The notes: generated from the letters alone by a model not told the origin. Positions 19,249 through 61,806 are shown, numbered from the stretch's first letter. The stretch is 64,000 bases of DNA from Halobacteriota archaeon (GCA_049287525.1 JBAQFZ010000059.1:3045-67044); one strand, 5' to 3'. Numbers and translations are program-made.

Positions 19249-19320
19249 GGCCGGGGCTGGGATTCGAACCCAGGTCTTGGGATCCACAGTCCCAAGGGAT
19301 ACCTCTACCACACCCCGGCA
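19249..19320 (-). tRNA. tRNA-His (anticodon GUG)
   Basis: Reverse complement GCCGGGG...TGGGA CTGTGGA TCCCA...CTGGGTTCGAATCCCAG CCCCGGC C. Anticodon loop CTGTGGA. Confidence 0.75.
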
Positions 19321-19396: not shown

Positions 19397-20167
19397 ATGG
19401 TTAAGATTGGGAACGTGGAATTAGGACTCAGACCGGTGATAGCAGGCGTAATGAGGGAGTTATCCATTCAGGATGCAGTCCGGGCGAAGAGCAGCGGTGC
19501 TGATGTAATAGAACTAAGACTAGACCTTTTGAAAAGCGAAGACCGGCGCGTGGAACGGGTGAACGAGTTCTTAGGACTGCTAAAGATGCCGGTTATCATA
19601 ACGAACAGGCGGAGAGAAGAAGGTGGCTCTTTTGCAGGCACAGAAGAGGAACAGATTGCCTTGCTTAGTAGCATCCTCGAAACCAGGCAGGTAAACGCGG
19701 TGGACATCGAATTTCTCTCGCATGAAGTGATAAAGCGGCGACTGATAGAGCAGGCAAATAAGCTTCTGATACCCGTTATTCTATCTTTACACGATTTAAA
19801 AGGCATGCCAGATCATGAGAAGATATTGAAAATCATAGATGATATGTATGACGAAGGCGGGAGCATAGCAAAGATTGCCGTGACGCCGAAGACGTTAAAC
19901 GATGCTTTATTCTTGCTCACACTGACGCATGCGGTATCGAAAGCCGGGAAGTCGTTAGTGTGTATTGGCATGGGCTCTGGCCCGATAGGTAGACATCTGC
20001 GACTAATAACGCCGGTATACGGGTCGGTACTGACTTACGGGTTTATTGGAAGCGAAGAGAGCAGCGTGGCTCCGGGGCAGTTCGGTGTGAAGGAGCTGAG
20101 ATACACACTGGATATGCTTGGATTAGGAGCTGCAAGAAGAAGGAATAATGGGGCCGGTGCGATTTGA
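19397..20167 (+). CDS. aroD: 3-dehydroquinate dehydratase, type I
   Basis: Motifs PVIAGVMRE, GADVIELRLDLL, MPVIITNRRREEGG and AVDIEF match type I DHQase. The 3' end overlaps tRNA-Trp on the opposite strand by about 19 nt. Confidence 0.78.
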   Translation: MVKIGNVELGLRPVIAGVMRELSIQDAVRAKSSGADVIELRLDLLKSEDRRVERVNEFLGLLKMPVIITNRRREEGGSFAGTEEEQIALLSSILETRQVNAVDIEFLSHEVIKRRLIEQANKLLIPVILSLHDLKGMPDHEKILKIIDDMYDEGGSIAKIAVTPKTLNDALFLLTLTHAVSKAGKSLVCIGMGSGPIGRHLRLITPVYGSVLTYGFIGSEESSVAPGQFGVKELRYTLDMLGLGAARRRNNGAGAI

Positions 20168-20222
20168 ACGCACGATCGGCGAGTCTGGAGCCCGCTGCCC
20201 TCCCGAACTAGGCCACGACCCC
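20149..20222 (-). tRNA. tRNA-Trp (anticodon CCA), no intron apparent
   Basis: Reverse complement GGGGTCG-TG-GCCTAGTTCGGGAGGGC-A-GCGGG CTCCAGA CTCGC-...-GTGCGTTCAAATCGCAC-CGGCCCC-A. Confidence 0.72.
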
Positions 20223-33807: not shown

Positions 33808-33934
33808 GGGTATAGCGGCCATAGCGGCGGGGAAACTCCCGGACTCATCCCGAACCCGGCAGATAAGCCCGCCAGCGTTCCTTACGGTACTTAGTTGTGC
33901 GAGCACTTGGGAACTAAGGATCGCTGCTATGCCC
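33808..33934 (+). rRNA. rrf: 5S ribosomal RNA (standalone; no 16S or 23S in the window)
   Basis: GGGTATAGCGGCCATAGCGGCGGGG..CCCGGACTCATCCCGAACCCGGCAGATAAGCCCGCCAGCGTTCC...GTACT...TGGGAAC...GCTGCTATGCC. Conserved 5S loop A and helix II/III motifs. The 5' and 3' ends pair (GGTATAGCGGC with GCTGCTATGCC, including G:U pairs). Confidence 0.7.
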
Positions 33935-39236: not shown

Positions 39237-42077
39237 TTACTTTATTTCGAGGAAGCCTGTATCAAACACTGTTGGTGTCCACAGCGTTGATTCTACTACT
39301 ACCCGGAATGCTTTCTTGCCCGCTGGAACTCCAGTTGGTACGTCTGCTCTGAGTGGTATCAGTACCTCACCACCTGCGGGTATCGCAACTTCTTTCGACG
39401 TCCAGTTGAACCATGCCAGATCGGCTTTCCAATCGTTTGGTATAGACTCGTTGGTCAGACTAACGAGGAATACATCGTCAAAGTTCTCGGTGTTCACGAT
39501 TTTTATACTGAGATTCACACTGCTGTTCACGGTGTTGAATCTTGGTGTAACCGCTGTACCGATTCCGCCTTTTGGTATGATTGACTCGAACACGTTCTCT
39601 AAGCAGTTGTTCTCTTCGTCACTCTCATTTACCTCGTCCTGGTTATCTGCACACACCACTATGGTATCGTTCGTGCCTGACATCGTGAACGGACCCACGG
39701 TGTTCGTGTAGCATTTACCAGCAGCAAGTGCCGGTACTGCATCCTCCATCACATCTACTCCGTCTATCGTGATGGTCGTGTTGCTCACGCCTGCATCTGC
39801 TTCTCCTTTGTTGCAGACCGTGTACGTGATGTTGTAGGTCTTATCCTCCGGACTTACCCATTCCTCGTACTTTGCCCGGATTACCAGGTCTGGCTTTCCT
39901 GGCGTGTTTATCCACGCATCGTCCCAGTCCATAAACCATTTTCCGTCATATTTGCCCTTTGCATACTGAACATTACGGTCAGCGCCACAGTCAACCACAC
40001 GCGCATCCGCTTCAATAACTATTGTATCATTTATTGTACCATTTCGTGTAAGTACAAAACGTGGGCAGTATTCGTTTACACTCCACTCACGGCTGACAAC
40101 GAGGTCTATGGTTACTTCTTCCACGTGGTATTCCGTTGCTTCGCCTGTCCTATTGTTACTTAAGACGATGAGGTCACACTCGCTGAGTATTCCATATCCA
40201 GGTTCTTCAGGGTTCTGGGTGTCTGTCCAGTTCACCAGCTCGTAGCTGTCCTTACAGCAGCAGACCTCTTCCCATTGCGTTTCCCACGGATTACTGAGGT
40301 CTATCTCCTGATGATCCCGTTCTGAATCGAAGTATAGCATGACACCATCCGGCTCCGTACTCGTTAATTTGAGCGTATAAGGCAGCAATTCCACATGGTA
40401 CCATGTCTTTCCATAGTATTCTGTTATGAACGTCCAATCCATGTTTGGATATGAAGTGCCGTCTCTCCATCCCTGACCGCGTGGGTAGAGCTCATATTTG
40501 TCCCAATAGAACCAGTGATAATCGCCATCCGTAGTAAGTTCAATGTAATATGTTTCATTTGGTATTAATTCAACTGGTGTTATGAAATGGAACTGCACCC
40601 ATACGGGCGTGTTCTTGTCTCCGAGCGCACCTAATTGCAACGTCGAACTTCCAATAGGAATCCTATTGGAATTATAGATTGCAACTGTTACGTTTCCCTG
40701 TTCGCCCCATAATGCGACACGTACTGCATCGAGTGTTGACACTGTTGGCACAAAGCTCTGGTAATCTTTTAGCGGCTCATTCTGAAGTGCATCTGAGGTA
40801 ACCGATTTTACCTGCCACTGGTCTACCACTTTCTCGCCTTCCATGTCTATCTGATCGCAGTGGCTGAGTTTACCATCGCCGTTTGTGTCTTCCCAACTAC
40901 TCAGGTGGTATTTCTTATCGGGCTCAGGACATAGCTCATTGAATCCGTTGCTGATTGGCGCATACGGGTCCCACGAGAGGTTCGCGGGATGTAATATCTT
41001 CGGCTTGAATGGGTAAGGTGGTACCAGCGTATCATCTATGGGGACATTTCCTATTTCCATTTTGATGGTCATATTGCCTGCAAATTCTAAGCTGCAGGAT
41101 GCCAAGTCCCAGAATCTTATATTCGTCAGGTTAACATCGCCGGTGTTCTGTACTTCGCATTTGAATTTATAGATGTCGCCAATCCCGGCACCGTATATCT
41201 CGTCTACCCATTCTTCGTTTACAGGGTCCCACACGGTCTTGTTTACTTCTATACCCGGCTCGTGGCAGGGTGGACATTCGAATTCGTTCTCTAAGCAGTT
41301 GTTCTCCTCTACTTCCTCGTCTACTACATTATCGTAGTCCGCGCAAACCAACACCGTTACATTCCTACCGCAAGGGCACTCGAACGTGCCAACGGTGGAC
41401 GTGTAGTTCTCGCCTGCTGCCAGTGGCGGTACAGGGTCTTCTACCACTCCGTTAGCAGCCGGGAAGCCAGCTACCGCGATGGACGTGTTGCTCGCGCCGG
41501 CATCGCCTGCTCCTTTGTTTGCTACCGTGTAGGTTACCATTATGGTATCATTCACCAATGTCTCGTACTTATCGGTGATTACTAGGTCTGGCTTCTCATT
41601 GTCTCTACAACTGAATGTGCCGTCATGCCATATTGCCGGTGGGTTGCCATAAGATTGATTCCCCAGTTTACAACTTTCATTGAGGTCCAGCAGAGTTGTG
41701 CAGTAGCCCTCGTTTTCGCAATGGATTGTAATAGTCGCGAGCTTTAAACGCTCTCCTGTTATATCGCTTACGGAAGGAGATGCTCCGATTATATGCGTTG
41801 CGCCCTTGTCGTATTTCACAAGGAACATCGAAGGGAAATCCCCAGGTGCTGCTTTTGTAATATTCGCGCAACAGGGGTCGTATTCGATCCAGATGTCGAA
41901 ACCAACTACACCCTCAGTTGCATTCAGTAGTATATCCACATCTGTTGTATTGCAATACTCAGCAGAGCTGTTCTCTGGTTCGAACCATACCGTGTTTGGT
42001 GGCAGTGCTGCTACCACGGAAGCTGACATTGCAAATAATAATGTTACTATTCCAAGCACTACTATTTTGTTATTCAT
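39237..42077 (-). CDS. giant secreted surface protein (946 aa): N-terminal cohesin-like domain, 2x CARDB repeats, C-terminal domain shared with the 35028 protein
   Basis: Signal peptide. Two CARDB-like repeats (PDLVITDKYE...VANKGAGDAGASNTSIAV...EENNCLENEF and PDLVIRAKYE...CNKGEADAGVSNTTITI...EENNCLENVF). The C-terminal RFNTVNSSVNLSIKIVNTENFDDVFLVSLTN...WKADLAWFNWTS is homologous to the C-terminus of the 35028 protein. Confidence 0.7.
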   Translation of the reverse strand: MNNKIVVLGIVTLLFAMSASVVAALPPNTVWFEPENSSAEYCNTTDVDILLNATEGVVGFDIWIEYDPCCANITKAAPGDFPSMFLVKYDKGATHIIGASPSVSDITGERLKLATITIHCENEGYCTTLLDLNESCKLGNQSYGNPPAIWHDGTFSCRDNEKPDLVITDKYETLVNDTIMVTYTVANKGAGDAGASNTSIAVAGFPAANGVVEDPVPPLAAGENYTSTVGTFECPCGRNVTVLVCADYDNVVDEEVEENNCLENEFECPPCHEPGIEVNKTVWDPVNEEWVDEIYGAGIGDIYKFKCEVQNTGDVNLTNIRFWDLASCSLEFAGNMTIKMEIGNVPIDDTLVPPYPFKPKILHPANLSWDPYAPISNGFNELCPEPDKKYHLSSWEDTNGDGKLSHCDQIDMEGEKVVDQWQVKSVTSDALQNEPLKDYQSFVPTVSTLDAVRVALWGEQGNVTVAIYNSNRIPIGSSTLQLGALGDKNTPVWVQFHFITPVELIPNETYYIELTTDGDYHWFYWDKYELYPRGQGWRDGTSYPNMDWTFITEYYGKTWYHVELLPYTLKLTSTEPDGVMLYFDSERDHQEIDLSNPWETQWEEVCCCKDSYELVNWTDTQNPEEPGYGILSECDLIVLSNNRTGEATEYHVEEVTIDLVVSREWSVNEYCPRFVLTRNGTINDTIVIEADARVVDCGADRNVQYAKGKYDGKWFMDWDDAWINTPGKPDLVIRAKYEEWVSPEDKTYNITYTVCNKGEADAGVSNTTITIDGVDVMEDAVPALAAGKCYTNTVGPFTMSGTNDTIVVCADNQDEVNESDEENNCLENVFESIIPKGGIGTAVTPRFNTVNSSVNLSIKIVNTENFDDVFLVSLTNESIPNDWKADLAWFNWTSKEVAIPAGGEVLIPLRADVPTGVPAGKKAFRVVVESTLWTPTVFDTGFLEIK

Positions 42078-42113
42078 TTTTTATCTTTTCACCTCCTAAT
42101 TTTTTATATTCGT

Positions 42114-42196
42114 GCACTTACCACGGTACCATGCTGCAAAGCAGTAGGTAAATCCCCATGCATCTCGGACCGTTTAAACCGTGGTTTCTTACTTCT
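42114..42196 (-). ncRNA. conserved ~83-nt 5' leader element (copy 1) between the promoter and the GGAGGTGA Shine-Dalgarno of gene 39237..42077
   Basis: gcacttaccacggtaccatgctgcaaagcagtaggtaaatccccatgcatctcggaccgtttaaaccgtggtttcttacttc is about 90% identical to 47403-47486. Internal complementarity: ccacgg/ccgtgg and tgcaaagca. Confidence 0.45.
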
Positions 42197-42257
42197 TCCT
42201 GTCCATATCCTCTCTTTTTTCATCTTTTCCCTCCTTCCTATTTTTATAAAAAATAAT

Positions 42258-42277
42258 AAGCGGCAGTTTGCCGCTTA
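42258..42277 (-). terminator. GC hairpin directly after the stop of the dockerin gene 42280..43296
   Basis: aagcggc agtttg gccgctt; on the minus strand it is followed by a T-rich tract (reverse complement of aaaaataataa). Confidence 0.5.
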
Positions 42278-42279
42278 TT

Positions 42280-43296
42280 CTATTTTTCCCTGCAACAACA
42301 GCAGTCCAATGCTTCTCCATACATGTAGTGACGAGCGATTTTTATCGCATCGCCCAGGAAGTCTATATTTCCACTGCAATCCACGTCTCCTGCCCACCTG
42401 CATTTTATGGGGTCGCCGTACATGTAGTGCCGTGCCACACCTATCGCATCGCCCAAAAAGTCCACGTTCCCGTTCATGTTCACGTCACCACACTTCCATG
42501 TATTGGTCAGGCAGTTGTTTGTTTCGTTGCTTTCGTCCACGGTATTATTGAAATCAGCACATACCGTTATGTTATCGCTTAGTGGTGTGTATGTCCATAC
42601 ATAGTTGAAACAACCGATATGACTATCGCCTGGTGCCAGAACTACTGGTACTGGGTCGTATTCCACTTCGAGACCGTCAACATACAACATCGTGTTATGC
42701 CCCGCAGAAGCTGTTCCATTACCCGTATTCGTTACGTTATAGCATATCGTGCAGTTATCAGTCCATGTATCAGTGACCTCCAGGTCTGGTCTTTCCCCGC
42801 ATGAGAATGTGCCGTTTTTCCATTCTACATCGAGTGGTAAGGCAGGTGGTGGTGATAGCAATGAACTACCCTCAATGAATCTCAAAGGAGTGGTGCAGAA
42901 ACTCGTACTGTTGCAGCAGTGAATCGTTAGAGTTCCAATTTGGAAAGTCCCATTTTTCGGACTCAGGGTCATGAACGCTATCCACTCTCTGCCATCAACG
43001 CTTCTATCCCACGTCGAATTTTGGGGTGGTAGCCAATTAGTAGTGTTAATTTCCCAAGTTGTTACATTTGCACACCCTGGATCATAAGAGAGGTATATCG
43101 TGCCACCTGCACAACCACGTTCGTCAGTTACATTAGCCCACACCTCTACCTCTGCAGTATTGCAATAAGGTGCATTGCTGTCCTCTGGTTTAAGCCATAC
43201 CAAGTTCTCTGCGGGCTGAGCGGAAGCTGCCGTTATCCAAACCATTGCAAATAACGCAGCTATTCCAAGGAATACTATTTCATTTTTGTGTTTCAT
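42280..43296 (-). CDS. secreted adaptor protein: N-terminal cohesin-like domain, CARDB-like domain, C-terminal type-I dockerin, ends CCCCREK
   Basis: Signal peptide. The N-domain is homologous to the N-domain of the 39237 protein (VW..PE.S.A.YCNT...YDP.CANVT). The dockerin has two Ca-binding repeats GDVNMNGNVDFLGDAIGVARHYMYG / GDVDCSGNIDFLGDAIKIARHYMYG. Confidence 0.68.
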   Translation of the reverse strand: MKHKNEIVFLGIAALFAMVWITAASAQPAENLVWLKPEDSNAPYCNTAEVEVWANVTDERGCAGGTIYLSYDPGCANVTTWEINTTNWLPPQNSTWDRSVDGREWIAFMTLSPKNGTFQIGTLTIHCCNSTSFCTTPLRFIEGSSLLSPPPALPLDVEWKNGTFSCGERPDLEVTDTWTDNCTICYNVTNTGNGTASAGHNTMLYVDGLEVEYDPVPVVLAPGDSHIGCFNYVWTYTPLSDNITVCADFNNTVDESNETNNCLTNTWKCGDVNMNGNVDFLGDAIGVARHYMYGDPIKCRWAGDVDCSGNIDFLGDAIKIARHYMYGEALDCCCCREK

Positions 43297-43539
43297 CTTT
43301 TCTTCTTTCGCCCCTAGATTTTTTACTCTTTCCTTAAAAAATTCTGATAAAGATGTTCTATTTAAAAGCTTTTCGGATAAATTTCTACTGAAACATTGCT
43401 CAAATCAAGCAAAATTAATAATTGATGTTAAGATAGCCCAAAAAATCTGACCGAAATCTCTATTTTTTCTCTCAGCCTATGCTTCTTATTCATCCCTTTT
43501 CTTTTCGCCTTCCCCCATCTTTTTATAAATAAAATGAAT

Positions 43540-43556
43540 AGCGGCATTCAGCCGCT
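43540..43556 (-). terminator. hairpin overlapping the stop codon of gene 43548..46061
   Basis: agcggc attca gccgct. The same sequence is present at 47538-47558. Confidence 0.45.
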
Positions 43557-46061
43557 TATCTTACAGCAACATTTCAGGTCATACTGACCCGGATAGCCGA
43601 CGTAGTATAGCAGGTCTATCACGTCCGACATGTCTATCCGCTTATCGCAGTTCACATCCGCTGCCCATTCATTACAAAATCGGTATTGACCGGGGTAACC
43701 CACATAATATAGCAAGTCTATTACATCCGGCATGTCCACTACTTCATTGCAGTTTACGTCACCGCATTTCCATGTCTCGGTCAGGCAGTTATTGGTCTCG
43801 TTGCTCTCTGCCATAGTATTATTGGAGTCGGCGCATACCGTTATGATGTCGCCTGGTGGCGTGTATGCCCATGTGTAGTTGAAACATCCAAGGTAACTCG
43901 CATTTGGTGCCAAATTCACGGGTACAGAATCATATACCTTTTCAACACCGTCCACAAACAGCATTGTATTATGCCCTGCTGGTGCTGGTGCCGTTCCATT
44001 TCCGACGTTCGTCACGTTATAGCAAATAGTGCAGTTTTCTTGCCACGTATCCGTGATTTTAAGGTCTGGCTTCTCTTCTGGATATTTAACGGTTAACGTT
44101 ACAGTCACTGCATAAGGGTCCTCATCCGGATCATTAGAACTTATATTTAACCAGCCATGATATTCACCTGGAGAAAGACCGGTACAATTAACGCATACGT
44201 TCACCAGTTTTGAGCCACCCGGGGAAACCGTGAATGTTCTTGGATTGGCATCAAGCCAGCCTGAACCTGATTGATAATGAATTCCGATGTCATCCACCAC
44301 CAAACTACCGTTTCCCGCGTTGGAAACCGTGAATGTCTTGCAATTTACTCCTGCAGTAAGATTTGCATAATAAACAAAATTCTCTATTGCGCATTCGCCA
44401 TAACCAACCTTGAAATAGCCATCACCGTTCCAGCCAGAGCCCCAACTGTTTTTTACAATCCAGTAGTCACCTGTTTCATCGTAACCCGCTATTACAACTG
44501 CGTGATTCACATCGTTATCATCGGTGCATCTGTAAACCCCATTTACATCGAAATACCCGCCAAATTCTGAGCCTATGCCCATAGCAACAGAGAGCGGACC
44601 TTTTTCTATCAAACTATCTTTAATTGTTTCTATATCGCTTGGCACACTCCCGGTCTCGTCTATTTTCTTTAGCCTATCGCTCCAATCGGGACATCTATAT
44701 CTATCAGAACAAGGGCAATTTCGTGCAATATACGGGAAGCAAGCCTCGTCAGTTATTCCTTCGTCCCTTATAAATTCAAGTGCTGTTGAATGCCATCCCC
44801 CATTGCAATCTCCACAAACTATGCAGCAATCCGATACTAAATACTGCTCTGAAAGGTCGAAATCCAACTCCGGATTGTCATACAAGATATTGTATTCAGG
44901 TTCTACTATGCCTACGCCAGAAAAAGCCCAGCAACTGCCACAACTGCCTTGATCCTTAACCGGGGTCATCCAATCGCCTCCGTCTTTATTCCTCCAGTCG
45001 AAGTGGTTCGGGAGGCTTATCTCCTTTTCTTTAATTTCTTTCTTATTAAAGTCCGTATCGCCAACACTCTTATTCTTATTTTTGCCAAGTTTTATCTTTC
45101 CCACCTTACACTTCTCGCTTAAATTCAGTAGCTCCGAAACAGTTTTGCGGGTGCCATCAGGCAGCACACAGGTAGTAGAGTTCGTAGCAAAGCAGTCCTT
45201 CTTTCCTTTTGATGCTATAAGCCAACCCTTTTTAGCACAATAGGAAAACTCTCTCCCACACTCACCACGATAAAAAGCCCAGGCATCGCATTCCGCTTTG
45301 TCGGGCATCACACAGATGCCTCGCTCTCCTTTTTCTCCCTTTTCTATTTTGTATTCGTAGCCCATATCCATGCAGTAAACGGCAGCGGGATTTTTGATGC
45401 CTATAACTTCTCCTTCTGCTTTAGTACTGCCACTCTGAGTGCAGTTAAATTCTGACCCTTTCAAGGTTGTTATATCTGCATTAAGGCTACATGCCTCCTC
45501 ACAGCATTCGAAGTCCAGATGTTCTGGTGTTACGTTAATATCTGGCTCGCCACTGAGCCTGACCGTATTATTGCAGCACTTTGTCGGTAGTTCATCGCAG
45601 TCGCCAGGCACCACTTTAGAGCAGAACTTGTAGTCGCCTATTTCCCATCCCCCGGGAACAGGTGCGTATAACGTAACGGTCCACGTTATATAATATCCAC
45701 CGGGAAGCCAGTCAGATGTCGAATCCGTCCATATTAGGGTACCATCCGGAGCATATTCGTAGAAGTAGATGGTATAATAGCTGCCATCACCATAGTTTGC
45801 AAATTGTGAGTAATCTATGAAGTCGTCATAAGGTTCGTAGCAGGGATACTCTGACCAAACACCGTCGCCATACCATCTGAAGTCACACCCTCTGGCAATA
45901 GGCACATCGTAGTAGTCTTCAATTGGGGACTCTTGTTTTGAGATACTAATATTCAACTCCTGAAACTCCACAAATGCTCCTGACCCGGAGAGCAATGATA
46001 GTGTTAATATCATTGTCATCACTATCGCTATTACATTTATATTTCCTCTTTTAGTGTCCAC
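43548..46061 (-). CDS. secreted multidomain protein: papain-like (C1A) cysteine peptidase, CARDB-like domain, C-terminal dockerin, ends KCCCKISG
   Basis: C1 peptidase motifs KDQGSCGSCWAFS, NHAVVIAGYD and WIVKNSWGSGWNGDGYF. The CARDB PDLKITDTWQENCTICYNVTNVGNGTAPAPAGHNTMLFV is near-identical to the one in 47555..50014. Dockerin repeats GDVNCNEVVDMPDVIDLLYYVGYPGQY x2. Confidence 0.75.
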   Translation of the reverse strand: MDTKRGNINVIAIVMTMILTLSLLSGSGAFVEFQELNISISKQESPIEDYYDVPIARGCDFRWYGDGVWSEYPCYEPYDDFIDYSQFANYGDGSYYTIYFYEYAPDGTLIWTDSTSDWLPGGYYITWTVTLYAPVPGGWEIGDYKFCSKVVPGDCDELPTKCCNNTVRLSGEPDINVTPEHLDFECCEEACSLNADITTLKGSEFNCTQSGSTKAEGEVIGIKNPAAVYCMDMGYEYKIEKGEKGERGICVMPDKAECDAWAFYRGECGREFSYCAKKGWLIASKGKKDCFATNSTTCVLPDGTRKTVSELLNLSEKCKVGKIKLGKNKNKSVGDTDFNKKEIKEKEISLPNHFDWRNKDGGDWMTPVKDQGSCGSCWAFSGVGIVEPEYNILYDNPELDFDLSEQYLVSDCCIVCGDCNGGWHSTALEFIRDEGITDEACFPYIARNCPCSDRYRCPDWSDRLKKIDETGSVPSDIETIKDSLIEKGPLSVAMGIGSEFGGYFDVNGVYRCTDDNDVNHAVVIAGYDETGDYWIVKNSWGSGWNGDGYFKVGYGECAIENFVYYANLTAGVNCKTFTVSNAGNGSLVVDDIGIHYQSGSGWLDANPRTFTVSPGGSKLVNVCVNCTGLSPGEYHGWLNISSNDPDEDPYAVTVTLTVKYPEEKPDLKITDTWQENCTICYNVTNVGNGTAPAPAGHNTMLFVDGVEKVYDSVPVNLAPNASYLGCFNYTWAYTPPGDIITVCADSNNTMAESNETNNCLTETWKCGDVNCNEVVDMPDVIDLLYYVGYPGQYRFCNEWAADVNCDKRIDMSDVIDLLYYVGYPGQYDLKCCCKISG

Positions 46062-46092
46062 TTTTCTTTTTCACCTCATATTCTTTATTCTT

Positions 46093-46521
46093 TTATTGGT
46101 CTCTCATCACCTTTTCTTTCTTCTCTCCATTCCTTTTCACTACATACAACCGCATTTCAGTTCGTACTGTCCCGGATAGCCGACGTAATACAGCAGGTCT
46201 ATTACATCCGACATGTCCACCGTTCGTCACATGATAGCAAATCGTGCAGTTAGCTGGCCAGCAGACCCATTTATCGGTGATCTCCAGGTCTGGCAGTAAC
46301 ATTGCTACTTCCGTCAACGGATGCCAATCTCCGCCTTGTTGTATACCACCAGACGAATTGTAGGGTAGCATTGTATCACCAAGCCCATCGTCATCTTCAT
46401 CCGTACCGGCATAGTCGCTCCAGTAGTTACCGCCAGACCAGAACCCGCCGACGATGTTTGTTCCCGGGATAGATTTTATTACTGCTGCCCCACTTTTGCG
46501 CATTTTCATAATTTTACCCAT
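46093..46521 (-). pseudogene. decayed duplicate of the beta-helix/dockerin gene 47555..50014 (N-terminus fused to a C-terminal segment, internal deletions, frameshifted end)
   Basis: The first 17 aa, MGKIMKMRKSGAAVIKS, are identical to the start of the 47555 gene. They are then fused to IPGTNIVGGFWSGGNYWSDYAGTDED.DGLGDTMLPYNSSGGIQQGGDWHPLTEVAMLLPDLE, which is residues ~590-650 of that gene. The DNA at 46201-46330 is near-identical to 48014-48130. Confidence 0.7.
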
Positions 46522-46642
46522 TTTTCTTAAAATTAAAAACCATGACGGGGCTTAGGCTCATATATAGTTATCGAATAGGGATATTGCATAATTAAGGCAA
46601 AATTGGACTATGGCAGCAATCTGACCCGAGTTGAGCAAGTGG
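46522..46642 (-). promoter_or_regulatory. duplicated upstream (promoter/5'UTR) segment, near-identical to 50024..50142
   Basis: ggggcttaggct.atatatagttatcgaatagggatattgcataattaaggcaaaa.tggactatggcagcaatctgacccgagttgagcaag occurs in both places. Contains TATA-like atatatagtta. Confidence 0.5.
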
Positions 46643-46751
46643 AGAGATTTCGTGGAAGACATTGGATGAAAATGTGAAAAAGAGGCTTACGAGGAATCCC
46701 GCACTCTCAAGTAGGGAAAAAAAAGGAAAAAGGTAGATGGATGTCTAACAC

Positions 46752-47339
46752 CTACTTCTCCATCCACATTTCGGCATACTTGAATTCAACCAGCGAACCG
46801 TAGTCGCTGACTCCAGGATCATAGTCCCCTATAAACCCTGTGGCAGTAGCCTCTCTGAACTTTGAATTTTCACTGTACTTGCTCATAAAGTCACCGGATT
46901 TTGACATCATTTTGAACATGCCTTTTTCCAAATCACCCCCACCGGTCCACTGAGCTTGGATGGCTACTGTCTGCACAGTCCCATCAGACACGAACAACTC
47001 TATATCCACAGGAGAGAGAGTTGCAGTGCTCAGTTGTTTATCTACGTCAAAAACATCCTCGGTAGTGAACTTATAACCCCACTTATCCTCCGACAGCCAC
47101 TCTCCCAGCTCAGAGTCGTACCAATACTTGTAAATACTCAAGTACATATCGGTCCCATCGTCGGTCTCCGTCAGCGACAGGAAGGTATAAGTATACAGCT
47201 CAGGCGATTCCTCTACCCAATCCGCATAGGCTGAAACACCCTTTTCTCGATTGATTGTCTTTGATTCCAACGCTACCACCGCTTCACACATGCTCAATGC
47301 AATAACTAACGCTAGCAGGATTGCCGCTATTTTATTCAT
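46752..47339 (-). CDS. secreted hypothetical protein (signal peptide)
   Basis: MNKIAAILLALVIALSMCEAVVA signal; 195 aa; preceded by a GGAGGTGA RBS and leader-element copy 2. Confidence 0.5.
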   Translation of the reverse strand: MNKIAAILLALVIALSMCEAVVALESKTINREKGVSAYADWVEESPELYTYTFLSLTETDDGTDMYLSIYKYWYDSELGEWLSEDKWGYKFTTEDVFDVDKQLSTATLSPVDIELFVSDGTVQTVAIQAQWTGGGDLEKGMFKMMSKSGDFMSKYSENSKFREATATGFIGDYDPGVSDYGSLVEFKYAEMWMEK

Positions 47340-47402
47340 TTTTATTTCTTTTCACCTCCTATTATTTTGGGTATTTATAAAGCACCCCTCCTCGGCGCTG
47401 AT

Positions 47403-47486
47403 GCACTTACCACGGTACCATGTTGCAAAGCAGCAGGTACATCCCCGTGCATCTCGGACATTTTAAACCGTGGTTTCTTACTTCCT
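47403..47486 (-). ncRNA. conserved ~83-nt 5' leader element (copy 2) upstream of gene 46752..47339
   Basis: gcacttaccacggtaccatgttgcaaagcagcaggtacatccccgtgcatctcggacattttaaaccgtggtttcttacttcc. See 42114-42196. Confidence 0.45.
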
Positions 47487-47554
47487 TTTCTCATCTCCAT
47501 TCTTTTTCTTCAGTCTCTACTCGCCTATTTTCATAAAAAAATAATGGGCGGCAT

Positions 47555-50014
47555 TCAGCCGCTTATTTCTATGCAACAGCATTTCAGTTCATACTGCCCA
47601 GGATAGCCGACGTAATACAGCAAGTCTATCACGTCCGACATGTCTATGCTGCTCTTGTCGCAGTTCACATCCGCTACCCACTCGTTACAAATTGTATATT
47701 GCCCCAGATAACCCACATAATATAGCAGGTCTATTACATCCGACATGTCCACTACTTCATTGCAGTTTACGTCACCGCATTTCCATGTCTCGGTCAGGCA
47801 GTTGTTGGTCTCGTTGCTCTCTTCTATCGTATTAGTGGAGTCGGCACATACCGTTATGATGTCGCCTGGTGGCGTGTATGCCCATGTGTAGTTGAAACAT
47901 CCGGTGTAGCTCGCATTTGGTGCCAAATTCACGGGTACAGAATCGTATACCTTTTCAACACCGTCTACAAACAGCGTTGTATTATGCCCTGCTGGTGCCG
48001 TACCATCTCCGACGTTCGTCACATGATAGCAAATCGTGCAGTTAGCTGGCCAGCAGACCCATATCCCGATTAGCTCCAGGTCTGGCAGTAACATTGCTAC
48101 TTCCGTCAACGGATGCCAATCTCCGCCTTGTTGTATACCACCAGACGAATTGTAGGGTAGCATTGTATCACCAAGCCCATCGCCATCTTCATCCGTACCG
48201 GCATAGTCGCTCCAGTAGTTACCGCCAGACCAGAACCCGCCGACGATGTTTGTTCCCGGAATAGGTGTGATATTCCATACGTTGGTTCCAGCATCATCAT
48301 CATCATAAGCGTTGTTCGTGTTGTCGAAGTAGTTATTGTAGATCGTATTGCCATTGGACAATATTAGAGTGATACCGATGCCGTTAGTGGTTACATTATT
48401 ACCCGTTATCGTAACGTTATCAGAATTATTCAGCCTGATACCACCCGCATTATTGGCAATCCGGTTCTCGCTGATATTGACACCATCCGGGCTGTTATCC
48501 AGATCAGATAAATTGCTCTTCGATGGCTGCATTCCTGACTCATAATCCTCACTTAGCAGCGCAAGTGCAGTAGGCGGCGCAGCATAATCAGCACTTACGA
48601 TTGGCTGCTGCAAAGCGCCACCATCTGCTACTGTGGCACCTGCAAAACCAGGCATCATACCAGAACCTGAACCAGAACCAGAGACGTAATCAAGCAGAAT
48701 GGCGTAGTCACTGTTGTTAACGATAGTATTGTTGTGAATCGAAGCATTGGTGAATGAGTAGAGTTTGATGCCGTAAGCATAACTAAAAGCCGCGTTGGCC
48801 GCGATGTAGTTATCTGAGACAATGGCACCCGAACTTTCTTTCAGATAAACACCGTATCCAAGATAGTCCCCAACTCCATTGTCTACCAGGGTATTTCCTG
48901 TAATCGTCAGATTCGCAGGAGCCGCCGCAGTATAAAAAAGCGTACTTAATATCCCATGATATATGTTATGCGATGCAGTGTTATTACAAATCGTGATGTT
49001 CTCGGTTGGCGAGTCCCCCAGAAAAATGCCGTGATACCCATTATTGTTCGCCGTGTTATTGTAAATCAAAGCGTCACTGCTCTTGTATATAACAATCCCG
49101 TGTACATCATTCTCCGATGCCGTGTTATTGATAACCGTATTGTTATAAGCCGTGTCATGGATATACACCCCATACATATTGTGCCTTGCCGTGTTGTTGG
49201 TTATTGTTGCGTTACGGGACGTCCAAGATAAAATGCCGGTCCCCGTATCTTGAGTAAGATTGAAATTATAGGAGACTTCATTACTGTCAATCAGGCAGTT
49301 ATCCGAAGAATACAGACGTATACCTTCCCAGTCATTATAATTGGCAGTATTGCGTATCAGCTTGTTATTATCTGATTCATAAAGATAGATCCCCATATGC
49401 CATTCGTTCGAGTTCGCGGTGTTGTTCGTGAGCGTATTGTTATCGCTTGAAGCCCACAAGTAGATGCCGTACTGTTTGTTCGCGCTTGCGTTGTTGTTGG
49501 CAATAGTGTTGTTAAATGAGTTGTACAAATAGATACCGCAATTGTTCGAGTTTACTGTGTTGTCCGTGATGCAGCAAGTATTAACGCCGCTAAGGTAGAT
49601 TCCCGCCTTAGCATAACTCGTTGCTCCTATCAACGTGAATCCTGAGATGTTCACCCGGTTTTGGTTCACCTCAACGACATGATCGCTTGCGTCGTTCGCT
49701 TGCACAATCACTACATCCCTGTTCTCGCCTTGCAACGTCAGCGACTTGTTCACGATTACGTTATCAAGGTAACTGCCGTTGTACACGTAAATCAAGTCGC
49801 CCACAGTCGCGTTATTTATTGCCGATTGTATCGGTGTTGAACTCGCATTGAACTGCGCCGGGGCAATCCACCACCCGCTTGTGTTCACATAAATTGCGGT
49901 TGCCGACGCAGTGCCCACGCTACCAAACGTCAATACGATAAACAGGAATAGCACAAGCACAACAGATTTTATTACTGCTGCCCCGCTTTTGCGCATTTTC
50001 ATAATTTTACCCAT
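47555..50014 (-). CDS. secreted right-handed parallel beta-helix (PbH1/NosD-like) protein, CARDB-like domain, C-terminal dockerin, ends KCCCIEISG
   Basis: Many PbH1 repeats (NTVNSNNCGIYLYNSFNNTIANNNASANKQYGIYLWASSDNNTLTNNTANSNEWHMGIYL...). NosD-like C-terminal GGNYWSDYAGTDEDGDGLGDTMLPY. CARDB and dockerin as in the 43548 protein. Confidence 0.75.
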   Translation of the reverse strand: MGKIMKMRKSGAAVIKSVVLVLFLFIVLTFGSVGTASATAIYVNTSGWWIAPAQFNASSTPIQSAINNATVGDLIYVYNGSYLDNVIVNKSLTLQGENRDVVIVQANDASDHVVEVNQNRVNISGFTLIGATSYAKAGIYLSGVNTCCITDNTVNSNNCGIYLYNSFNNTIANNNASANKQYGIYLWASSDNNTLTNNTANSNEWHMGIYLYESDNNKLIRNTANYNDWEGIRLYSSDNCLIDSNEVSYNFNLTQDTGTGILSWTSRNATITNNTARHNMYGVYIHDTAYNNTVINNTASENDVHGIVIYKSSDALIYNNTANNNGYHGIFLGDSPTENITICNNTASHNIYHGILSTLFYTAAAPANLTITGNTLVDNGVGDYLGYGVYLKESSGAIVSDNYIAANAAFSYAYGIKLYSFTNASIHNNTIVNNSDYAILLDYVSGSGSGSGMMPGFAGATVADGGALQQPIVSADYAAPPTALALLSEDYESGMQPSKSNLSDLDNSPDGVNISENRIANNAGGIRLNNSDNVTITGNNVTTNGIGITLILSNGNTIYNNYFDNTNNAYDDDDAGTNVWNITPIPGTNIVGGFWSGGNYWSDYAGTDEDGDGLGDTMLPYNSSGGIQQGGDWHPLTEVAMLLPDLELIGIWVCWPANCTICYHVTNVGDGTAPAGHNTTLFVDGVEKVYDSVPVNLAPNASYTGCFNYTWAYTPPGDIITVCADSTNTIEESNETNNCLTETWKCGDVNCNEVVDMSDVIDLLYYVGYLGQYTICNEWVADVNCDKSSIDMSDVIDLLYYVGYPGQYELKCCCIEISG

Positions 50015-50639
50015 TTTTCTTAAAATTAAAAATCTTGATGGGGCTTAGGCTTATATATAGTTATCGAATAGGGATATTGCATAATTAAGGCAAAAATGGA
50101 CTATGGCAGCAATCTGACCCGAGTTGAGCAAGAAAAGAGAGCCAATAGGAGATGTTCCGATAATAGTTCCAGGTTTACAACTTTTATGTCCAGATTGTAT
50201 TGGAGACGATTGATAGTTTATTGATACAATCCTTCTTTTCATGAAATTAAAGCGGGAGCATGTTCTATAATACTATCTAAAGGAGAAGGAAAAGGAAAAG
50301 GGTGGATATTATGGGACCGATATAGCAATACTTGCTAAAGAACCGGAAGTAAGATGGTATTCCATCAAAAAGAGGTTGAAAGAATGGCTATTGCGTCCTC
50401 CGCCAGTTTTGACAGGATATTCACACTCTCAGACCATCCGATCAAAGAGGATAATAAAAGCCAGGATGGAACTTTTAAGACCTGAACAGCAAGGCATGTA
50501 CCGCCTACACATCATCATCCACATGTTTAGATTCTGCTCTTATGCGTTATTGGCATTAACAAGTCCCTTATTTACGGGATTTTTGAATAGTAAGTTTTAT
50601 ATAGGTGTAGGGGGTATCCATCCTACATAGCAATCAAAA

Positions 50640-53040: not shown

Positions 53041-53629
53041 CTATTGATAATATTCAGCACCATTCTCGGATCTAAAAGTACCGATGACCTTCCGCATAAG
53101 CACGTGCTCCCTGATAACCTGCTCGCTGAGATTGTTCGTTGGCTCCATTCCAGGGTAAAGGAGGCATGTATACCCGCTTCCCAGACCGTTTCGGATATAC
53201 GTTACCGGCTTCTTCAGTTCTTTGAACGTGCTGAATTGCTCCGCTATCAAACTTTAGGAAAGTTTGATCAAAATGCTTCGCTATCTGCCATTTCCCTATC
53301 CCACACTTCTTTCTGCTGTATCCGCTCTTCCATGGATGCAGGCGGGTCTTTCCCGAGGAACTCCTTTAATGCCTTGAATTTTGCATGAATGGTCTTTGAT
53401 AGCTCCTTACCGCCGGGCTTTTCGATGAACGCCCTTAGGCGTGATGTCGAAGGAATTGAGGTTTTAAATTCTCGTTTATCTTTATTAGCTCTGCATTCTG
53501 CTTTGTTAACCCAGCATTCTGCTTTTCTAGTTCTGCTACCTTTTCTTCCAGCGCCTCTATCTGGAGCATCAAACTTCGATAATCGCTCGCTGTTACTGAC
53601 ATCTCCACACTCAGACTTTCAGCCATCAA
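53041..53629 (-). mobile_element. IS66-family transposase (TnpC) remnant, internally deleted pseudogene
   Basis: N-terminal leucine-zipper piece (LQIEALEEKVAELEKQNAGLTKQNAELIKINENL, 53435-53629). C-terminal piece with the IS66 TNNxSEQ..R.....RK...G..S..GA motif (PTNNLSEQVIREHVLMRKVIGTFRSENGAEYY, 53041-53250). The ~400-aa middle is missing. Adjacent palindromes at 53003-53042. Confidence 0.55.
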
Positions 53630-60102: not shown

Positions 60103-61806
60103 ATGGATATAATGAGTGTGATAGATAGATCGAGGGAATATTTAATTACAAAACAGAGACAAGACGGATCCATTTATGGTGAAGTTGAGTACAGCATTTG
60201 GCCTAGTGCAGCATATCTGCTATTATTAAATTATCTTGGAGTTCATCACGGGAGAAAAATGGATTTAATTGAATGGATTATTGACCATCAAAATGAAGAT
60301 GGAAGTTGGGGAGTTATAACAGACAAGTCTAATGGAGATTACCAAAATACACTAATGGGGTTAGCAGCTGTAAAGGCGTATATGGGCAGAGACAGAGCAG
60401 AGAGAGCAAGAGAATGGGTTCAAACATTTTCAGGTGACAAACTATTAACTCCTTTTACAGCAATCCTCCTTTCGACTAAGGAAGAAGATATAAGAATTCC
60501 AATTCCAATATATCTCACCTCAGTCAAATTTGGCAAAAATTTAGGTAAACTTCATATGATATTCCCGAAACTTTTTTCATGGAGTATTTTCTTTTATCCT
60601 CCATCATGGCTTGGAGAGGATATTCATCCTTCCTTTCAAATAATATCTGTGTTAAAGAGAAAAAAGGATAAGAAAAAACTAAATTATTTTGACAAAATGA
60701 TCGTTAATCGTGCTGAAAAAAAGCTTACCGAGTTGCAGTTAGAAAATGGTAGTTGGTCATGCCTGGCGTTATCTACAATGTGTGCGATATATGCACTTCA
60801 TGAATTGGATCATGACGTCGGCAGTGCACCAATCACCAAAGGATTACAGTTTCTTAGCAATTTAATGGGGCAAGAAGGCAATTTTAATTTGTTCCGACTG
60901 AAGGTATGGGAAACCTCCCTTGCAGTAATAGCGCTAACTGAAAGTGATATGCCTCCGGGCAATCCAATAATAATAGCAGGAAATTTCCTGATTAGAGCTC
61001 AAACAGAAAAAGGGGGGTGGTCATTTGACTTCCCCAGCAACGTACCCGATAATGACGACACTGCCTTATCCCTTTTAGCGCTAAACCGTATACCAATCGA
61101 ACAAAAAAGTAATGCAGTTAAGCATGGTATAGATTATCTCATAAGAATGCAAAATGATGACGGCGGTTGGGGTGCTTTTGACAGGAATCAGTGCCGTAAA
61201 GACCCCGGGAAAAAACCGCCTTTTGAATTGTTATGCCTAATGGATCCCAGTACTGCTGACGTAACCGGGCACGTTCTCCAGGCATTGAAGGATGTGGGTG
61301 GCTTAGATAAATCGTCAAAGATAATTAGAAAAGCGATCAAGTGGTTGAAGAATGATCAAATAAAATGTGGTGCGTGGTGGGGCAGATGGGGAATATGCTA
61401 CATATACGGTACAAGTCGAGTGTTACATGGGTTAAAAGCTGTTGGAGAAAACTTACATTCTGATTATATTTTAAAAGCTATAAGATGGATGCAAGAAATC
61501 CAAAATCCTGACGGTGGTTGGGGTGAAGATATTGCCAGTTCTCGCTCTAATGAGCCAATATTTGGTCCAAGCACTGTAGAACATACAAGTTGGGCCTTGT
61601 TAGCACTGATGGATGTAAATATTGACCTCCGCTCAGAAGTAATAAGGAGAGGGATAGACTTTTTATTAAAATCTCAAATGGAAGACGGGAACTTTCCAGG
61701 AGTGCATACTGCAGATGGTATAGATCCGGTAAAATACGAATTGTACTCTGTTATATTTCCGCTTTGGGCACTATCAAAGTTCCAAAAAATGATAGGAGGG
61801 AGTTAA
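60103..61806 (+). CDS. squalene-hopene-cyclase-like class II terpene cyclase (SQCY / prenyltransferase-squalene oxidase repeat protein) with DxDDTA catalytic motif
   Basis: Five or more QW-type repeats (HQNEDGSWGV, LQLENGSWSC, AQTEKGGWSFD, MQNDDGGWGAFD, IQNPDGGWGED). DNDDTA at 61048-61059. SHC-like N-terminus (REYLITKQRQDGSIYG...YLLLLNYLG). Confidence 0.75.
   Translation: MDIMSVIDRSREYLITKQRQDGSIYGEVEYSIWPSAAYLLLLNYLGVHHGRKMDLIEWIIDHQNEDGSWGVITDKSNGDYQNTLMGLAAVKAYMGRDRAERAREWVQTFSGDKLLTPFTAILLSTKEEDIRIPIPIYLTSVKFGKNLGKLHMIFPKLFSWSIFFYPPSWLGEDIHPSFQIISVLKRKKDKKKLNYFDKMIVNRAEKKLTELQLENGSWSCLALSTMCAIYALHELDHDVGSAPITKGLQFLSNLMGQEGNFNLFRLKVWETSLAVIALTESDMPPGNPIIIAGNFLIRAQTEKGGWSFDFPSNVPDNDDTALSLLALNRIPIEQKSNAVKHGIDYLIRMQNDDGGWGAFDRNQCRKDPGKKPPFELLCLMDPSTADVTGHVLQALKDVGGLDKSSKIIRKAIKWLKNDQIKCGAWWGRWGICYIYGTSRVLHGLKAVGENLHSDYILKAIRWMQEIQNPDGGWGEDIASSRSNEPIFGPSTVEHTSWALLALMDVNIDLRSEVIRRGIDFLLKSQMEDGNFPGVHTADGIDPVKYELYSVIFPLWALSKFQKMIGGS

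Follow-up and report, generated by a model that had tools for sequence, protein, structure and literature searches.

Two copies of a short repeated element, each ahead of a surface-protein gene, lie within a 64,000-nt stretch of Halobacteriota archaeon DNA (the whole of which is called the window). Copy A is on the strand of the gene at 39237-42077, copy B on that of the gene at 46752-47339, and each is found downstream of a TATA-like box and upstream of the Shine-Dalgarno (SD) sequence AGGAGGTGA, in agreement with a sequence-only reading that had put both copies on the minus strand between promoter and SD. A hairpin with a T-run precedes the TATA-like box ahead of each copy; the one upstream of copy A is conserved among paralogues and in metagenomes. 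With the TATA-to-TSS spacing taken from PMC5378194, transcription from the promoter predicted for copy A would begin ~30 nt before P1. The coding sequences had been called unrelated, and the two proteins indeed share nothing beyond signal-peptide-like N-termini, with a best E of 0.72 in BLASTP. The coordinates of all features are collected in Table 1.

Table 1. Map of element copies A and B and of their surroundings in the window.
Feature	Position	Strand	Basis or remark
Copy A: terminator-like hairpin of upstream gene, AATAAGCGGCAAACTGCCGCTTATT, then T-run	42255..42279	-	sequence reading
Copy A: TATA-like box TTTTTATAAAAATAGG	42237..42252	-	predicted promoter
Copy A: whole element, P1 5' strand to pseudoknot 3' strand, 75 nt	42111..42185	-	covariance model, alignments
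Copy A: P1 5' strand ACCACGGU, partner 42120-42127 (ACCGUGGU)	42178..42185	-	RNAalifold, pair counts
Copy A: junction J1/2 UUAAA, unpaired	42173..42177	-	alignment of 18 copies
Copy A: P2 5' strand CGGUCC, partner 42150-42155 (GGAUUU)	42167..42172	-	pair counts
Copy A: 11-nt P2 loop GAGAUGCAUGG, conserved	42156..42166	-	alignment, pair counts
Copy A: pseudoknot 5' strand GAUGCAU within P2 loop	42158-42164	-	alignment, pair counts
Copy A: P3 hairpin ACCUACUGCUUUGCAGCAUGGU, variable arm	42128..42149	-	hairpin folds of homologues
Copy A: pseudoknot 3' strand GUGCACG (GUGCAUC in other copies)	42111..42117	-	pair counts
Copy A: Shine-Dalgarno AGGAGGUGA	42089..42097	-	sequence reading
Copy A: start codon of 946-aa CARDB protein	42075-42077	-	sequence reading
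Copy B: terminator-like hairpin ahead of copy	47543-47567	-	sequence reading
Copy B: TATA-like box TTTTTATGAAAATAGG	47524..47539	-	just downstream of terminator-like hairpin
Copy B: whole element	47400..47474	-	covariance-model match 90.4 bits; alignment
Copy B: P1	47467-47474 with 47409-47416	-	alignment
Copy B: J1/2	47462-47466	-	alignment
Copy B: P2	47456-47461 with 47439-47444	-	alignment
Copy B: P2 loop (pseudoknot 5' strand 47447-47453)	47445-47455	-	alignment
Copy B: P3	47417-47438	-	alignment
Copy B: pseudoknot 3' strand GUGCAUC	47400-47406	-	alignment
Copy B: additional hairpin AGCGCC-GAGGA-GGGGUGCU, separating element from SD	47381..47399	-	sequence reading
Copy B: Shine-Dalgarno AGGAGGUGA	47352..47360	-	sequence reading
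Copy B: start codon of 195-aa signal-peptide protein	47337-47339	-	sequence reading

The extra hairpin that follows copy B was seen as the same insert at a metagenome or genome locus labelled L013. A repeat search of the window aligned 42113-42195 with 47402-47484 (83 nt, 93% identical); the repeat reported before, at about 90% identity over 42114-42196 and 47403-47486, was thus real, its limits being 1-2 nt off. The 26-nt core with two free positions occurred exactly twice in the window and in none of 100 shuffles, and neither nhmmer nor a covariance-model scan with filters off found copies in the window beyond the same two. High identity inside the window is not by itself evidence of constraint, because the island also holds other recent duplications, 92-95% identical, inside the coding sequence of neighbouring genes; selection is for the same reason to be demonstrated from related sequences and not from the window alone. 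With only 2 of the ~9 surface-protein genes of the island preceded by the element, the proposed coordination of the island as a whole does not hold.

The suggestion that further copies be sought was borne out by 18 distinct full and 3 distinct degenerate copies, upstream of many genes, from Methanosarcinales/ANME-2-type MAGs and sediment metagenomes. An 18-base pattern run over genome contigs found 4 true matches in three Methanosarcinales-type MAGs, a metagenome pattern scan gave 16 additional matches, and the full copy at L032 was reached by a protein-guided search without any DNA pattern. The protein search gave matches with a profile of nine N-terminal domains, and none with a single 170-aa N-terminal domain as query. 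Since 16 of the 18 copies came from patterns fixing parts of P2, loop and tail, invariance in these parts is partly by construction; the UUAAA junction was outside the metagenome pattern. The degenerate copies are at L027 (3490-3676), L035 and L041; loci L034, L038-L040 (L040 labelled Methanophagales) and L042-L044 were examined and lacked the element, and the viral contigs scanned gave 0 matches. Core blocks were 76-100% identical in pairs of copies whose flanks no longer align. Sequence diversity was low (effective sequence number of the covariance model, 1.56) and the taxonomic range narrow, covering a few Methanosarcinales lineages.

Copies inside coding regions had been named as the sign of a repeat or IS fragment; all 18 full and 3 degenerate copies are intergenic, and each of the 21 points the same way as the gene that follows it, whose start codon is 30-134 nt away. 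A MITE, IS fragment or dispersed repeat was rejected on this uniform placement and on the short distance to an SD; G·U pairs are also accepted between the 8-bp arms of P1, a property of RNA. There was no support for an att site or a tRNA-like reading. Upstream of the element there are promoter-like boxes, whose distance from it varies across the copies, and transcription starts were predicted from these boxes; at one locus or more, L004 being the case seen, the copy probably occupies an intercistronic spacer.

The 18 copies share a common fold, made up of P1 (ACCACGGU/AYYGUGGU), the UUAAA junction, P2, P3 and a pseudoknot. RNAalifold yielded P1, P2 and P3 from the copies. P2 (NGGUCC/GGAYYU, superseding a pairing of YGGGG with CCYR that came from a two-copy fold and was not kept in the wider set) closes a conserved 11-nt loop, GAGAUGCRYGG, in which GAUGCRY pairs with the 3' tail GUGCAUC; P3 is a hairpin whose length ranges over 16-40 nt and whose sequence falls into at least five types. 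The self-complementary segments noticed at the outset are present, ccacgg/ccgtgg being P1 and ctgc-ttt-gcag the tip of P3. The fold goes beyond a single hairpin, being a three-way junction plus pseudoknot.

Covariation, which had been marked as worth testing, supported a conserved secondary structure with compensatory base changes across the copies. With the pseudoknot included, 98.1% of 432 cells pair, versus 25-46% in slid controls. Five pairs have changes on both sides, a number reached by 1 of 500 shuffles, and the covariation score of 0.219 was reached by none of 500; the compensatory evidence amounts to a handful of events, located in P2, P1, P3 and the pseudoknot. The P1 helix is 98.6% paired (pair 13:94 is GC9/GU8/AU1). 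Within P2, pair 22:42 is GC9/AU4/GU4/UG1 and goes from G·U in copy A to U·G in copy B, pair 23:41 is GU11/GC6/AU1, and pair 25:39 changes from CG to UA in L032; in the pseudoknot, pair 35:102 is CG13/UG4/UA1 and pair 34:103 is AU16/GU2. Copy A matched the covariance model at 84.8 bits (E = 4e-18), and only 5 of its 7 pseudoknot pairs can form. The J1/2 bases UUAAA are invariant in 18/18 copies. Single-sequence minimum-energy folds gave the same junction in 10/18 copies, and in 5 other homologues the pseudoknot helix replaced P1/P2. The P3 hairpin is kept in 17/18 copies, with its sequence replaced at least five times, and is broken at L013. G·U occupied 59 cells and A·C 5, so that the RNA strand is the mRNA strand; the opposite strand would pair only ~86% of cells. 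An antisense RNA was rejected: the two P3-tip substitutions between the window copies are G·U on the plus strand, and the G·U excess over 18 copies is overwhelmingly on the gene strand.

The Rfam search that had been suggested (Rfam 15, 4227 models) gave no family match to the element. At gathering thresholds the whole window yielded just 5S rRNA and 3 tRNAs, and permissive scans of 41900-47800, 42085-42215 and positions 200-350 of L003 gave chance-level hits only (E >= 0.64, 7-23 bits), far below cut-off. A literature search found no description of the motif. Judged from sequence comparison, the element is an undescribed conserved folded RNA, a new RNA family. A leader peptide (MHGDLP...) read from the AUG in the P2 loop was rejected, since the lengths of the inserts are spread over all three frames (the matches measure 52, 58, 65, 72, 75 and 76); this frame has early stops in several copies, the frame that runs through the conserved 3' block differs between copies, and no conserved SD was found before the AUG.

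Signal-peptide-like N-termini are found on 15 of the 18 downstream proteins, many of which have a cohesin-like N-domain, CARDB or dockerin; they reach ~980 aa, and several are short (56, 192 and 195 aa). Orthologues of the 195-aa protein (~50% identity) in other ANME-2/Methanosarcinales MAGs have a different conserved leader without the element, and degenerate copies exist, so these genes can do without the element. Between the pseudoknot and the SD there are 12 to ~115 nt. The pairing probability of the SD in the folded copies was 0.14-0.76 with no common partner, and no conserved expression platform was found among them; pairing that would sequester the SD, whether with the tail (CAUC with GGUG) or with another segment, was weak and not conserved. 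No U-run follows the element in the copies, nor was a conserved terminator found. The premise that long 5' UTRs are uncommon fails for this order, as 24% of 5' UTRs in Methanolobus psychrophilus exceed 150 nt, and most M. mazei mRNAs are reported to have long 5' UTRs too (PMC5378194).

The element is probably a control element before secreted and cell-surface genes in methane-oxidising ANME-2-like archaea. We favor, at a probability of roughly 0.55, a conserved structured leader RNA acting in cis, where binding of a factor would set translation and/or mRNA lifetime of an extracellular-protein regulon. It would be transcribed as part of the 5' leader of mRNAs mostly encoding secreted or cell-surface proteins. 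What the comparison shows is the family, its fold and strand, and a fixed placement and orientation with respect to genes: P1, P2 and P3 meet at a three-way junction with UUAAA as the single 5-nt joiner, the P2 loop pairs with the tail just 3' of P1 as an H-type pseudoknot, and P3 is a length-variable peripheral arm. The invariant unpaired bases (junction, loop flanks and AA linker) may form a pocket or surface for a trans-acting factor, which could be a small ligand, riboswitch-like, or a protein, and its occupancy would govern translation initiation and/or the lifetime of the regulon's mRNAs. We infer this mechanism, as neither a conserved terminator nor conserved sequestration of the SD turned up. 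Given the distance of the SD and its inconsistent sequestration, the output is more likely to be steric, to work through a standby site or to lie in mRNA stability than to be classic SD masking.

The same fold could instead sense nothing, serving as a constitutive module, a compact 5' structure with an A-rich spacer behind it, that shields the mRNA from decay dependent on its 5' end, enhances translation or offers a standby site where extracellular proteins are strongly expressed. We consider this unlikely. In its favour, neither masking of the SD nor an alternative, switch-like structure was found, the element is followed by an A-rich linker and then a strong AGGAGGUGA, it travels with a shared terminator-promoter-leader cassette, and mRNA-stabilising long 5' UTRs are reported in Methanosarcinales (PMC5378194). 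A stabilising hairpin, however, needs neither invariant junction and loop bases nor a pseudoknot preserved between lineages, and sister genes with the same cassette lack the element. M. psychrophilus has long stabilising or alternative 5' UTRs at mtaA/mtaC, Hsp20 and a cell-surface protein gene; these belong to the same archaeal order, are 100-170 nt and structured, and were proposed to act post-transcriptionally (PMC5378194). Those leaders are gene-specific, whereas the element is a covarying motif shared by unrelated genes and genomes.

A protein as the bound factor has precedents in mRNA operators such as ribosomal-protein leaders and the archaeal L7Ae K-turn sites. Like these, the element is a conserved structured leader site and could let one protein control a regulon; unlike them, it has, by inspection, no K-turn signature of tandem G·A pairs beside a 3-nt bulge (the junction strands UUAAA and GGGUA offer no GA/AG dinucleotide pair, and a K-turn/L7Ae site was rejected), and no resemblance to an rRNA site was found. 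The narrower proposal of an archaea-specific riboswitch class with the element as its aptamer, by which a signalling molecule or ion would switch a cohesin/dockerin surface and secreted regulon in ANME-2, is rather doubtful. A conserved fold with covariation, of modest diversity, was found, and orientation and place suit a 5' UTR in 21/21 distinct copies, with the transcription start predicted; an expression platform, by SD or start masking or by a terminator, was not found. THF-I class aptamers are three-way junctions locked by a pseudoknot, and the element resembles them in being a 75-100 nt element in a predicted 5' leader in cis, with covarying helices, invariant junction and loop bases, one length-variable arm and a loop-to-tail pseudoknot. 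In contrast to riboswitch aptamers it has no Rfam riboswitch match and no recognisable expression platform, its range is narrow, and neither this range nor the varied gene set gave a clue to a ligand. In bacteria, Clostridia among them, c-di-GMP-I/II riboswitches precede genes for adhesins, pili and surface proteins; they too are multi-copy leader RNAs before assorted extracellular or adhesion proteins and not before a metabolic pathway, and c-di-GMP-II is also pseudoknotted. The element matches neither model and its hosts are archaea, in which we know of no c-di-GMP signalling, so the analogy is purely functional.

An action on transcription, with the RNA addressing elongating RNA polymerase or termination factors and promoting read-through of long, T-run-rich surface-protein genes, is improbable. 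The variable distance to the start codon and the intercistronic copy at L004 fit the polymerase as a target and not the ribosome-binding site, and some of the genes are long; yet the short downstream genes speak against it, as does the lack of a match to Rfam families, bacterial antitermination RNAs included. The EAR of Bacillus eps operons, the leader RNA of a bacterial family that brings about processive antitermination, is likewise a structured pseudoknot RNA in leaders or intergenic regions of envelope and surface loci at variable distance from the start codon, but many element-bearing genes are single and short; we know of no archaeal precedent for such a leader. A small RNA working in trans, either from an independent gene with a proximal promoter or derived from the 5' UTR, is about equally improbable: loop and tail are mutually complementary and could pair between molecules, and Methanolobus genes commonly have more than one TSS (PMC5378194), but no U-run terminator follows the element, and its co-orientation with, and closeness to, a downstream SD are strict in 21/21 distinct copies.

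That the element is not an RNA at all, and either arose neutrally when promoter-leader cassettes were recently duplicated or converted or is a DNA-level promoter or operator, is harder still to credit. The 92-95% identical island duplications would suit the former, and TTTAAA and the linkers AATATAAAAAATT (copy A) and CTTTATAAATACC (copy B, 47370-47382) are TATA-like; TTTAAA would then serve as the TATA box, and the 3' block with the A/T-rich linker as a proximal BRE/TATA. The whole reading is disfavoured, and the conserved SD downstream of the element implies a leadered mRNA. Against both stand the conservation amid unrelated flanks in many samples and the compensatory changes in all three helices and the pseudoknot. 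Double-stranded DNA sites would not be expected to show so many more G·U than A·C cells, the 24-nt variation in P3 length would break any fixed promoter spacing, and with P1-arm spacing varying over 50-74 nt a double-stranded operator or promoter was rejected. A self-cleaving ribozyme, or an RNase processing signal trimming the leader to a defined 5' end, is the least credible of these readings: small ribozymes, too, typically have a compact junction with a pseudoknot and unpaired bases that do not vary, and several copies occur per genome, but no ribozyme model of Rfam, hammerhead, twister, twister-sister, pistol, hatchet and HDV-like included, gave a match at E up to 10, and by inspection the hammerhead core is absent from the junction.

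To our knowledge, structured cis-regulatory RNAs are very few in archaea, none being known for the surface biology of ANME or Methanosarcinales, and nothing is known of how the dockerin/cohesin extracellular proteins of ANME-2 are controlled. ANME-2 genomes stand out for their many extracellular proteins with dockerins and cohesins, and what these do in syntrophic consortia is unsettled (PMC9012536). The 75-100 nt fold offers a handle on the control of surface genes without a pure culture; it is fit for in vitro transcription and probing, ligand screens and use as bait for proteins, and as a covariance model it could be run over ANME genomes and metatranscriptomes to delimit the regulon. The element also illustrates neatly how a putative regulatory leader can move as a cassette between unrelated genes. 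If the riboswitch reading were true, it would be an RNA sensor governing cell-surface and consortium building in uncultured methane oxidisers.

The sequence-only reading had proposed that two minus-strand stretches of about 90% identity, lying between promoter regions and Shine-Dalgarno (SD) sites, serve as a leader shared by two unrelated surface-protein genes. Copies A and B (family D10 of the repeat search) proved 93% identical over 83 nt; their 26-nt core occurred twice in the window and in none of 100 shuffles, and neither nhmmer nor an unfiltered covariance-model scan found a third copy in the window. Each copy was preceded by a conserved, terminator-like hairpin and T-run of the preceding dockerin-bearing gene and by a TATA-like box, and was followed by AGGAGGTGA and the start codon, in agreement with the proposed placement; the 946-aa and 195-aa products share only signal-peptide-like N-termini and are otherwise unrelated. 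Because the island of surface-protein genes is full of recent duplications (92–95% identity within coding sequence; families D2, D3 and D6), the window by itself cannot tell constraint from recent copying.

Other features of the window are included in the Table. An 819-aa NosD/beta-helix/CARDB gene has left the 142-aa ORF as a chimeric remnant, whose two 95% matches point to recent duplication with internal deletion in the island. The 567-aa squalene-hopene-cyclase-like protein, to our knowledge unusual for archaea, falls in a 90% cluster that also has Methanophagales-labelled members; besides the 5S gene, no further rRNA was reported in the 64-kb window. The terminator-like hairpin, T-run and TATA-like box are conserved among paralogous surface-protein genes and across metagenomes (family D9), and the unit marks a reusable gene-boundary cassette. 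The A/T-rich, TATA-like stretches between element and SD would, if used as promoters, give transcripts from about the start codon that skip the element; in Methanolobus, genes commonly use alternative TSSs (PMC5378194).

Table. Features of the window and of relative loci (L-numbers) collected from genome and metagenome contigs.
Feature	Location	Strand	Remarks
Element copy A	window 42113-42195	-	
Element copy B	window 47402-47484	-	
TATA-like box, copy A	window 42237-42252	-	after hairpin and T-run
TATA-like box, copy B	window 47524-47539	-	after hairpin and T-run
Gene after copy A	window 39237-42077	-	946 aa, CARDB
Gene after copy B	window 46752-47339	-	195 aa, no Pfam domain
A/T-rich stretch, copy A	window 42098-42110	-	AATATAAAAAATT
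A/T-rich stretch, copy B	window 47370-47382	-	CTTTATAAATACC
Hairpin/T-run/TATA-like cassette	window 42237-42290, 43521-43571, 47524-47578; also L014, L015, L027, L029 etc.		hairpin ATAAGCGGCnnAATGCCGCTTATT
142-aa ORF	window 46093-46521	-	95% matches: 5' end with its upstream region to 49964-50140, 3' part to 48004-48271
Squalene-hopene-cyclase-like gene	window 60103-61806	+	Pfam SQHop_cyclase_C, 7.5e-82
5S rRNA gene	window 33811-33932	+	95.5 bits
tRNAs	window 9040-9122, 19249-19319, 20149-20222		
TCAAACTTTAGGAAAGTTTGATCAAAAYGCTTCGC mini-hairpin, alone	window 53246-53284	+	far from any element
TCAAACTTTAGGAAAGTTTGATCAAAAYGCTTCGC mini-hairpin, other sites	L020 3549-3567; L022 389-450; L024 1356-1417; L027 3530-3600		
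Full copy, protein-guided search	L032/L033 11131-11216		75 bits
Degenerate or variant copies	L027 3490-3676; L035 189-293 (= L036, L037); L041 3307-3410		
192-aa Cys-rich protein	L013 496-1074		without signal peptide
Leaders of 195-aa-protein orthologues	L045 6953-7209; L048 3886-4137		~250 nt, intergenic

We searched relatives for further copies by three routes. A genome-contig scan with an 18-base pattern drawn from the 5' half of the element gave 12 loci, 8 of them chance coding matches in bacteria and 4 true homologues from three Methanosarcinales-type MAGs; a two-block pattern on metagenome contigs gave 16 true loci of 19. In the third, the N-terminal cohesin-like domains of proteins encoded 3' of elements were built into a profile that led to homologous proteins and their contigs, yielding one further full copy (L032/L033) independent of any DNA pattern. 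The total came to 18 distinct full copies (alignment A6), all intergenic, none in a coding region, and all oriented as the next gene. The protein-guided search also gave degenerate copies (L035–L037 and L041), and one metagenome locus (L027) carries another, in which ~90 nt are inserted and P1, P2 and the pseudoknot are all weakened. In L035 and L041 the 5' half is retained, but a different 3' half, common to the two, lacks the pseudoknot tail. Such variants may be copies in decay or belong to a second subtype.

RNAalifold on 17 sequences gave a three-way junction, in which helix P1 (8 bp, ACCACGGU/AYYGUGGU) is joined by single-stranded J1/2 (UUAAA) to P2 (6 bp, NGGUCC/GGAYYU), which closes an 11-nt loop, GAGAUGCRYGG, and P3 stacks straight on the junction, without joining nucleotides 5' or 3' of it. 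On the 3' side of P1, AA leads into a tail, GUGCAUC, complementary to GAUGCRY of the P2 loop; the result is an H-type pseudoknot whose 7-bp stem is crossed by two loop nucleotides (GA), a classical geometry for this type. The P3 hairpin was present in 17 of 18 copies, at 16–40 nt and with at least five different sequences; P3 was broken in L013, and the pseudoknot was weakened in copy A (GUGCACG). Single-sequence folds reproduced this junction for 10 of the 18 copies and gave the pseudoknot helix instead for five others, as expected of compatible helices competing where pseudoknots are not representable. The palindromic mini-hairpin TCAAACTTTAGGAAAGTTTGATCAAAAYGCTTCGC forms the P3 tip in about half of the elements and occurs a second time between element and SD in L020, L022 and L024; the L027 insertion has two of them and the window a solitary one. 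It has the look of a small dispersed repeat able to land in tolerant RNA loops.

Pairs were counted on a MAFFT alignment of the 18 sequences that was not fitted to the structure. Of 432 cells 98.1% paired, versus 25–46% with partners slid by 1–3 columns; five pairs changed on both sides, which 1 of 500 shuffles equalled, and the covariation score was 0.219 versus 0.176 ± 0.009 in shuffles (0 of 500 as high), at a low diversity (effective sequence number 1.56). The covariation that the sequence-only reading had marked as worth testing was thereby found. Informative pairs were 22:42 (GC9/AU4/GU4/UG1), 23:41 (GU11/GC6/AU1), 25:39 (CG to UA in L032), 13:94 (GC9/GU8/AU1) and 46:89 (CG to UA in L021) and, in the pseudoknot, 35:102 (CG13/UG4/UA1), 34:103 and 30:107 (AU/GU each). 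Since non-Watson-Crick cells comprised 59 G·U versus 5 A·C, the folded molecule is the gene-strand RNA; the antisense strand would pair only ~86% of cells. For most sequences, GTCCGAGATG(C) and GGTAAGTGCA had been set by the search patterns, so invariance in part of P2, loop and tail is partly by construction; J1/2, the outer P2 pairs, P1, P3, loop 34–37 and the last two tail bases were free of the patterns, and the real test of pseudoknot and P2 rests on L032. The RNA fold very probably exists.

The pseudoknot tail ends 30–72 nt from the start codon (134 nt in L032 if its SD-led MRKTG start is taken), usually with an A-rich linker of 12–14 nt and then AGGAGGUGA; an extra linker hairpin occurs in copy B, L013, L020, L022, L024 and L030. 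Promoter-like boxes lie 5' of the element, mostly ~50–60 nt from P1 (~30 nt in L008 and L013, ~45 nt in L011); the L004 copy is probably intercistronic, because the preceding gene stops ~20 nt before P1. The premise that long 5' UTRs are uncommon does not hold for this order: the 5' UTRs of Methanolobus psychrophilus have a median of 55 nt, with 24% of them longer than 150 nt, and most M. mazei mRNAs are reported to have long 5' UTRs too (PMC5378194), so leaders as long as the element's are normal for the order.

The element is thus a conserved, pseudoknotted three-way-junction RNA in fixed polarity before genes. Its invariant unpaired bases and pseudoknot speak for a ligand or protein that recognises it specifically; the effect would be on how translation starts from the neighbouring A-rich/SD region, or on how long the mRNA lasts, and we put this reading at a probability of about 0.55. 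Neither the SD nor the start codon was found in a conserved pairing (pairing probabilities 0.14–0.76, no common partner), and no U-run terminator was found. A constitutive stabiliser or enhancer is unlikely, set beside the features from which recognition is argued. We consider a transcription read-through element improbable, and an sRNA, whether trans-acting or derived from the UTR, equally so. Covariation, G·U bias and the varying distance between the arms speak against a neutral repeat or an element at the DNA level, which is scarcely to be expected; a ribozyme or processing site is least probable of all. As for a leader ORF, no conserved reading frame was found in the element; the loop AUG opens MHGDLP..., but inserts fall in all three frames.

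Neither Rfam 15, at any useful threshold, nor full-text literature searches gave a family match or description of the element. It is like three-way-junction/pseudoknot riboswitch aptamers in architecture, bacterial second-messenger riboswitches before adhesin and surface-protein genes in gene association, and antitermination leaders in positional freedom, but belongs to none of them; we regard it as a new family of RNA whose kind, the structured cis-acting leader, is already known.

The downstream proteins begin signal-peptide-like in 15 of 18 cases, many with a cohesin-like domain and then CARDB; dockerin/cohesin proteins are abundant in ANME genomes (PMC9012536). Others are a secreted papain-like protease (after the degenerate L027 copy), a membrane-anchored prenyltransferase-repeat protein, an acidic NAL1-like protein without signal peptide and two Cys-rich products not typical of surface proteins, of 56 aa (MEEKEEEVRGPIGYCYQKRDCTGTKC...; L017 = L008) and 192 aa (L013). 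Homologues of the 195-aa protein carry the labels Methanosarcinales and ANME-2 cluster archaeon. Its orthologues (~50% identity) in two other MAGs lack the element and have a different leader; these leaders (L045, L048) are conserved between both ANME-2/Methanosarcinales MAGs and showed no similarity to the element. Within the window's island the element precedes only 2 of ~9 surface genes, and the others have the same layout of terminator, TATA, purine-rich leader and SD without it. Since sister island genes and the 195-aa orthologues do without it, the element behaves like a leader module that is optional and can be transferred.
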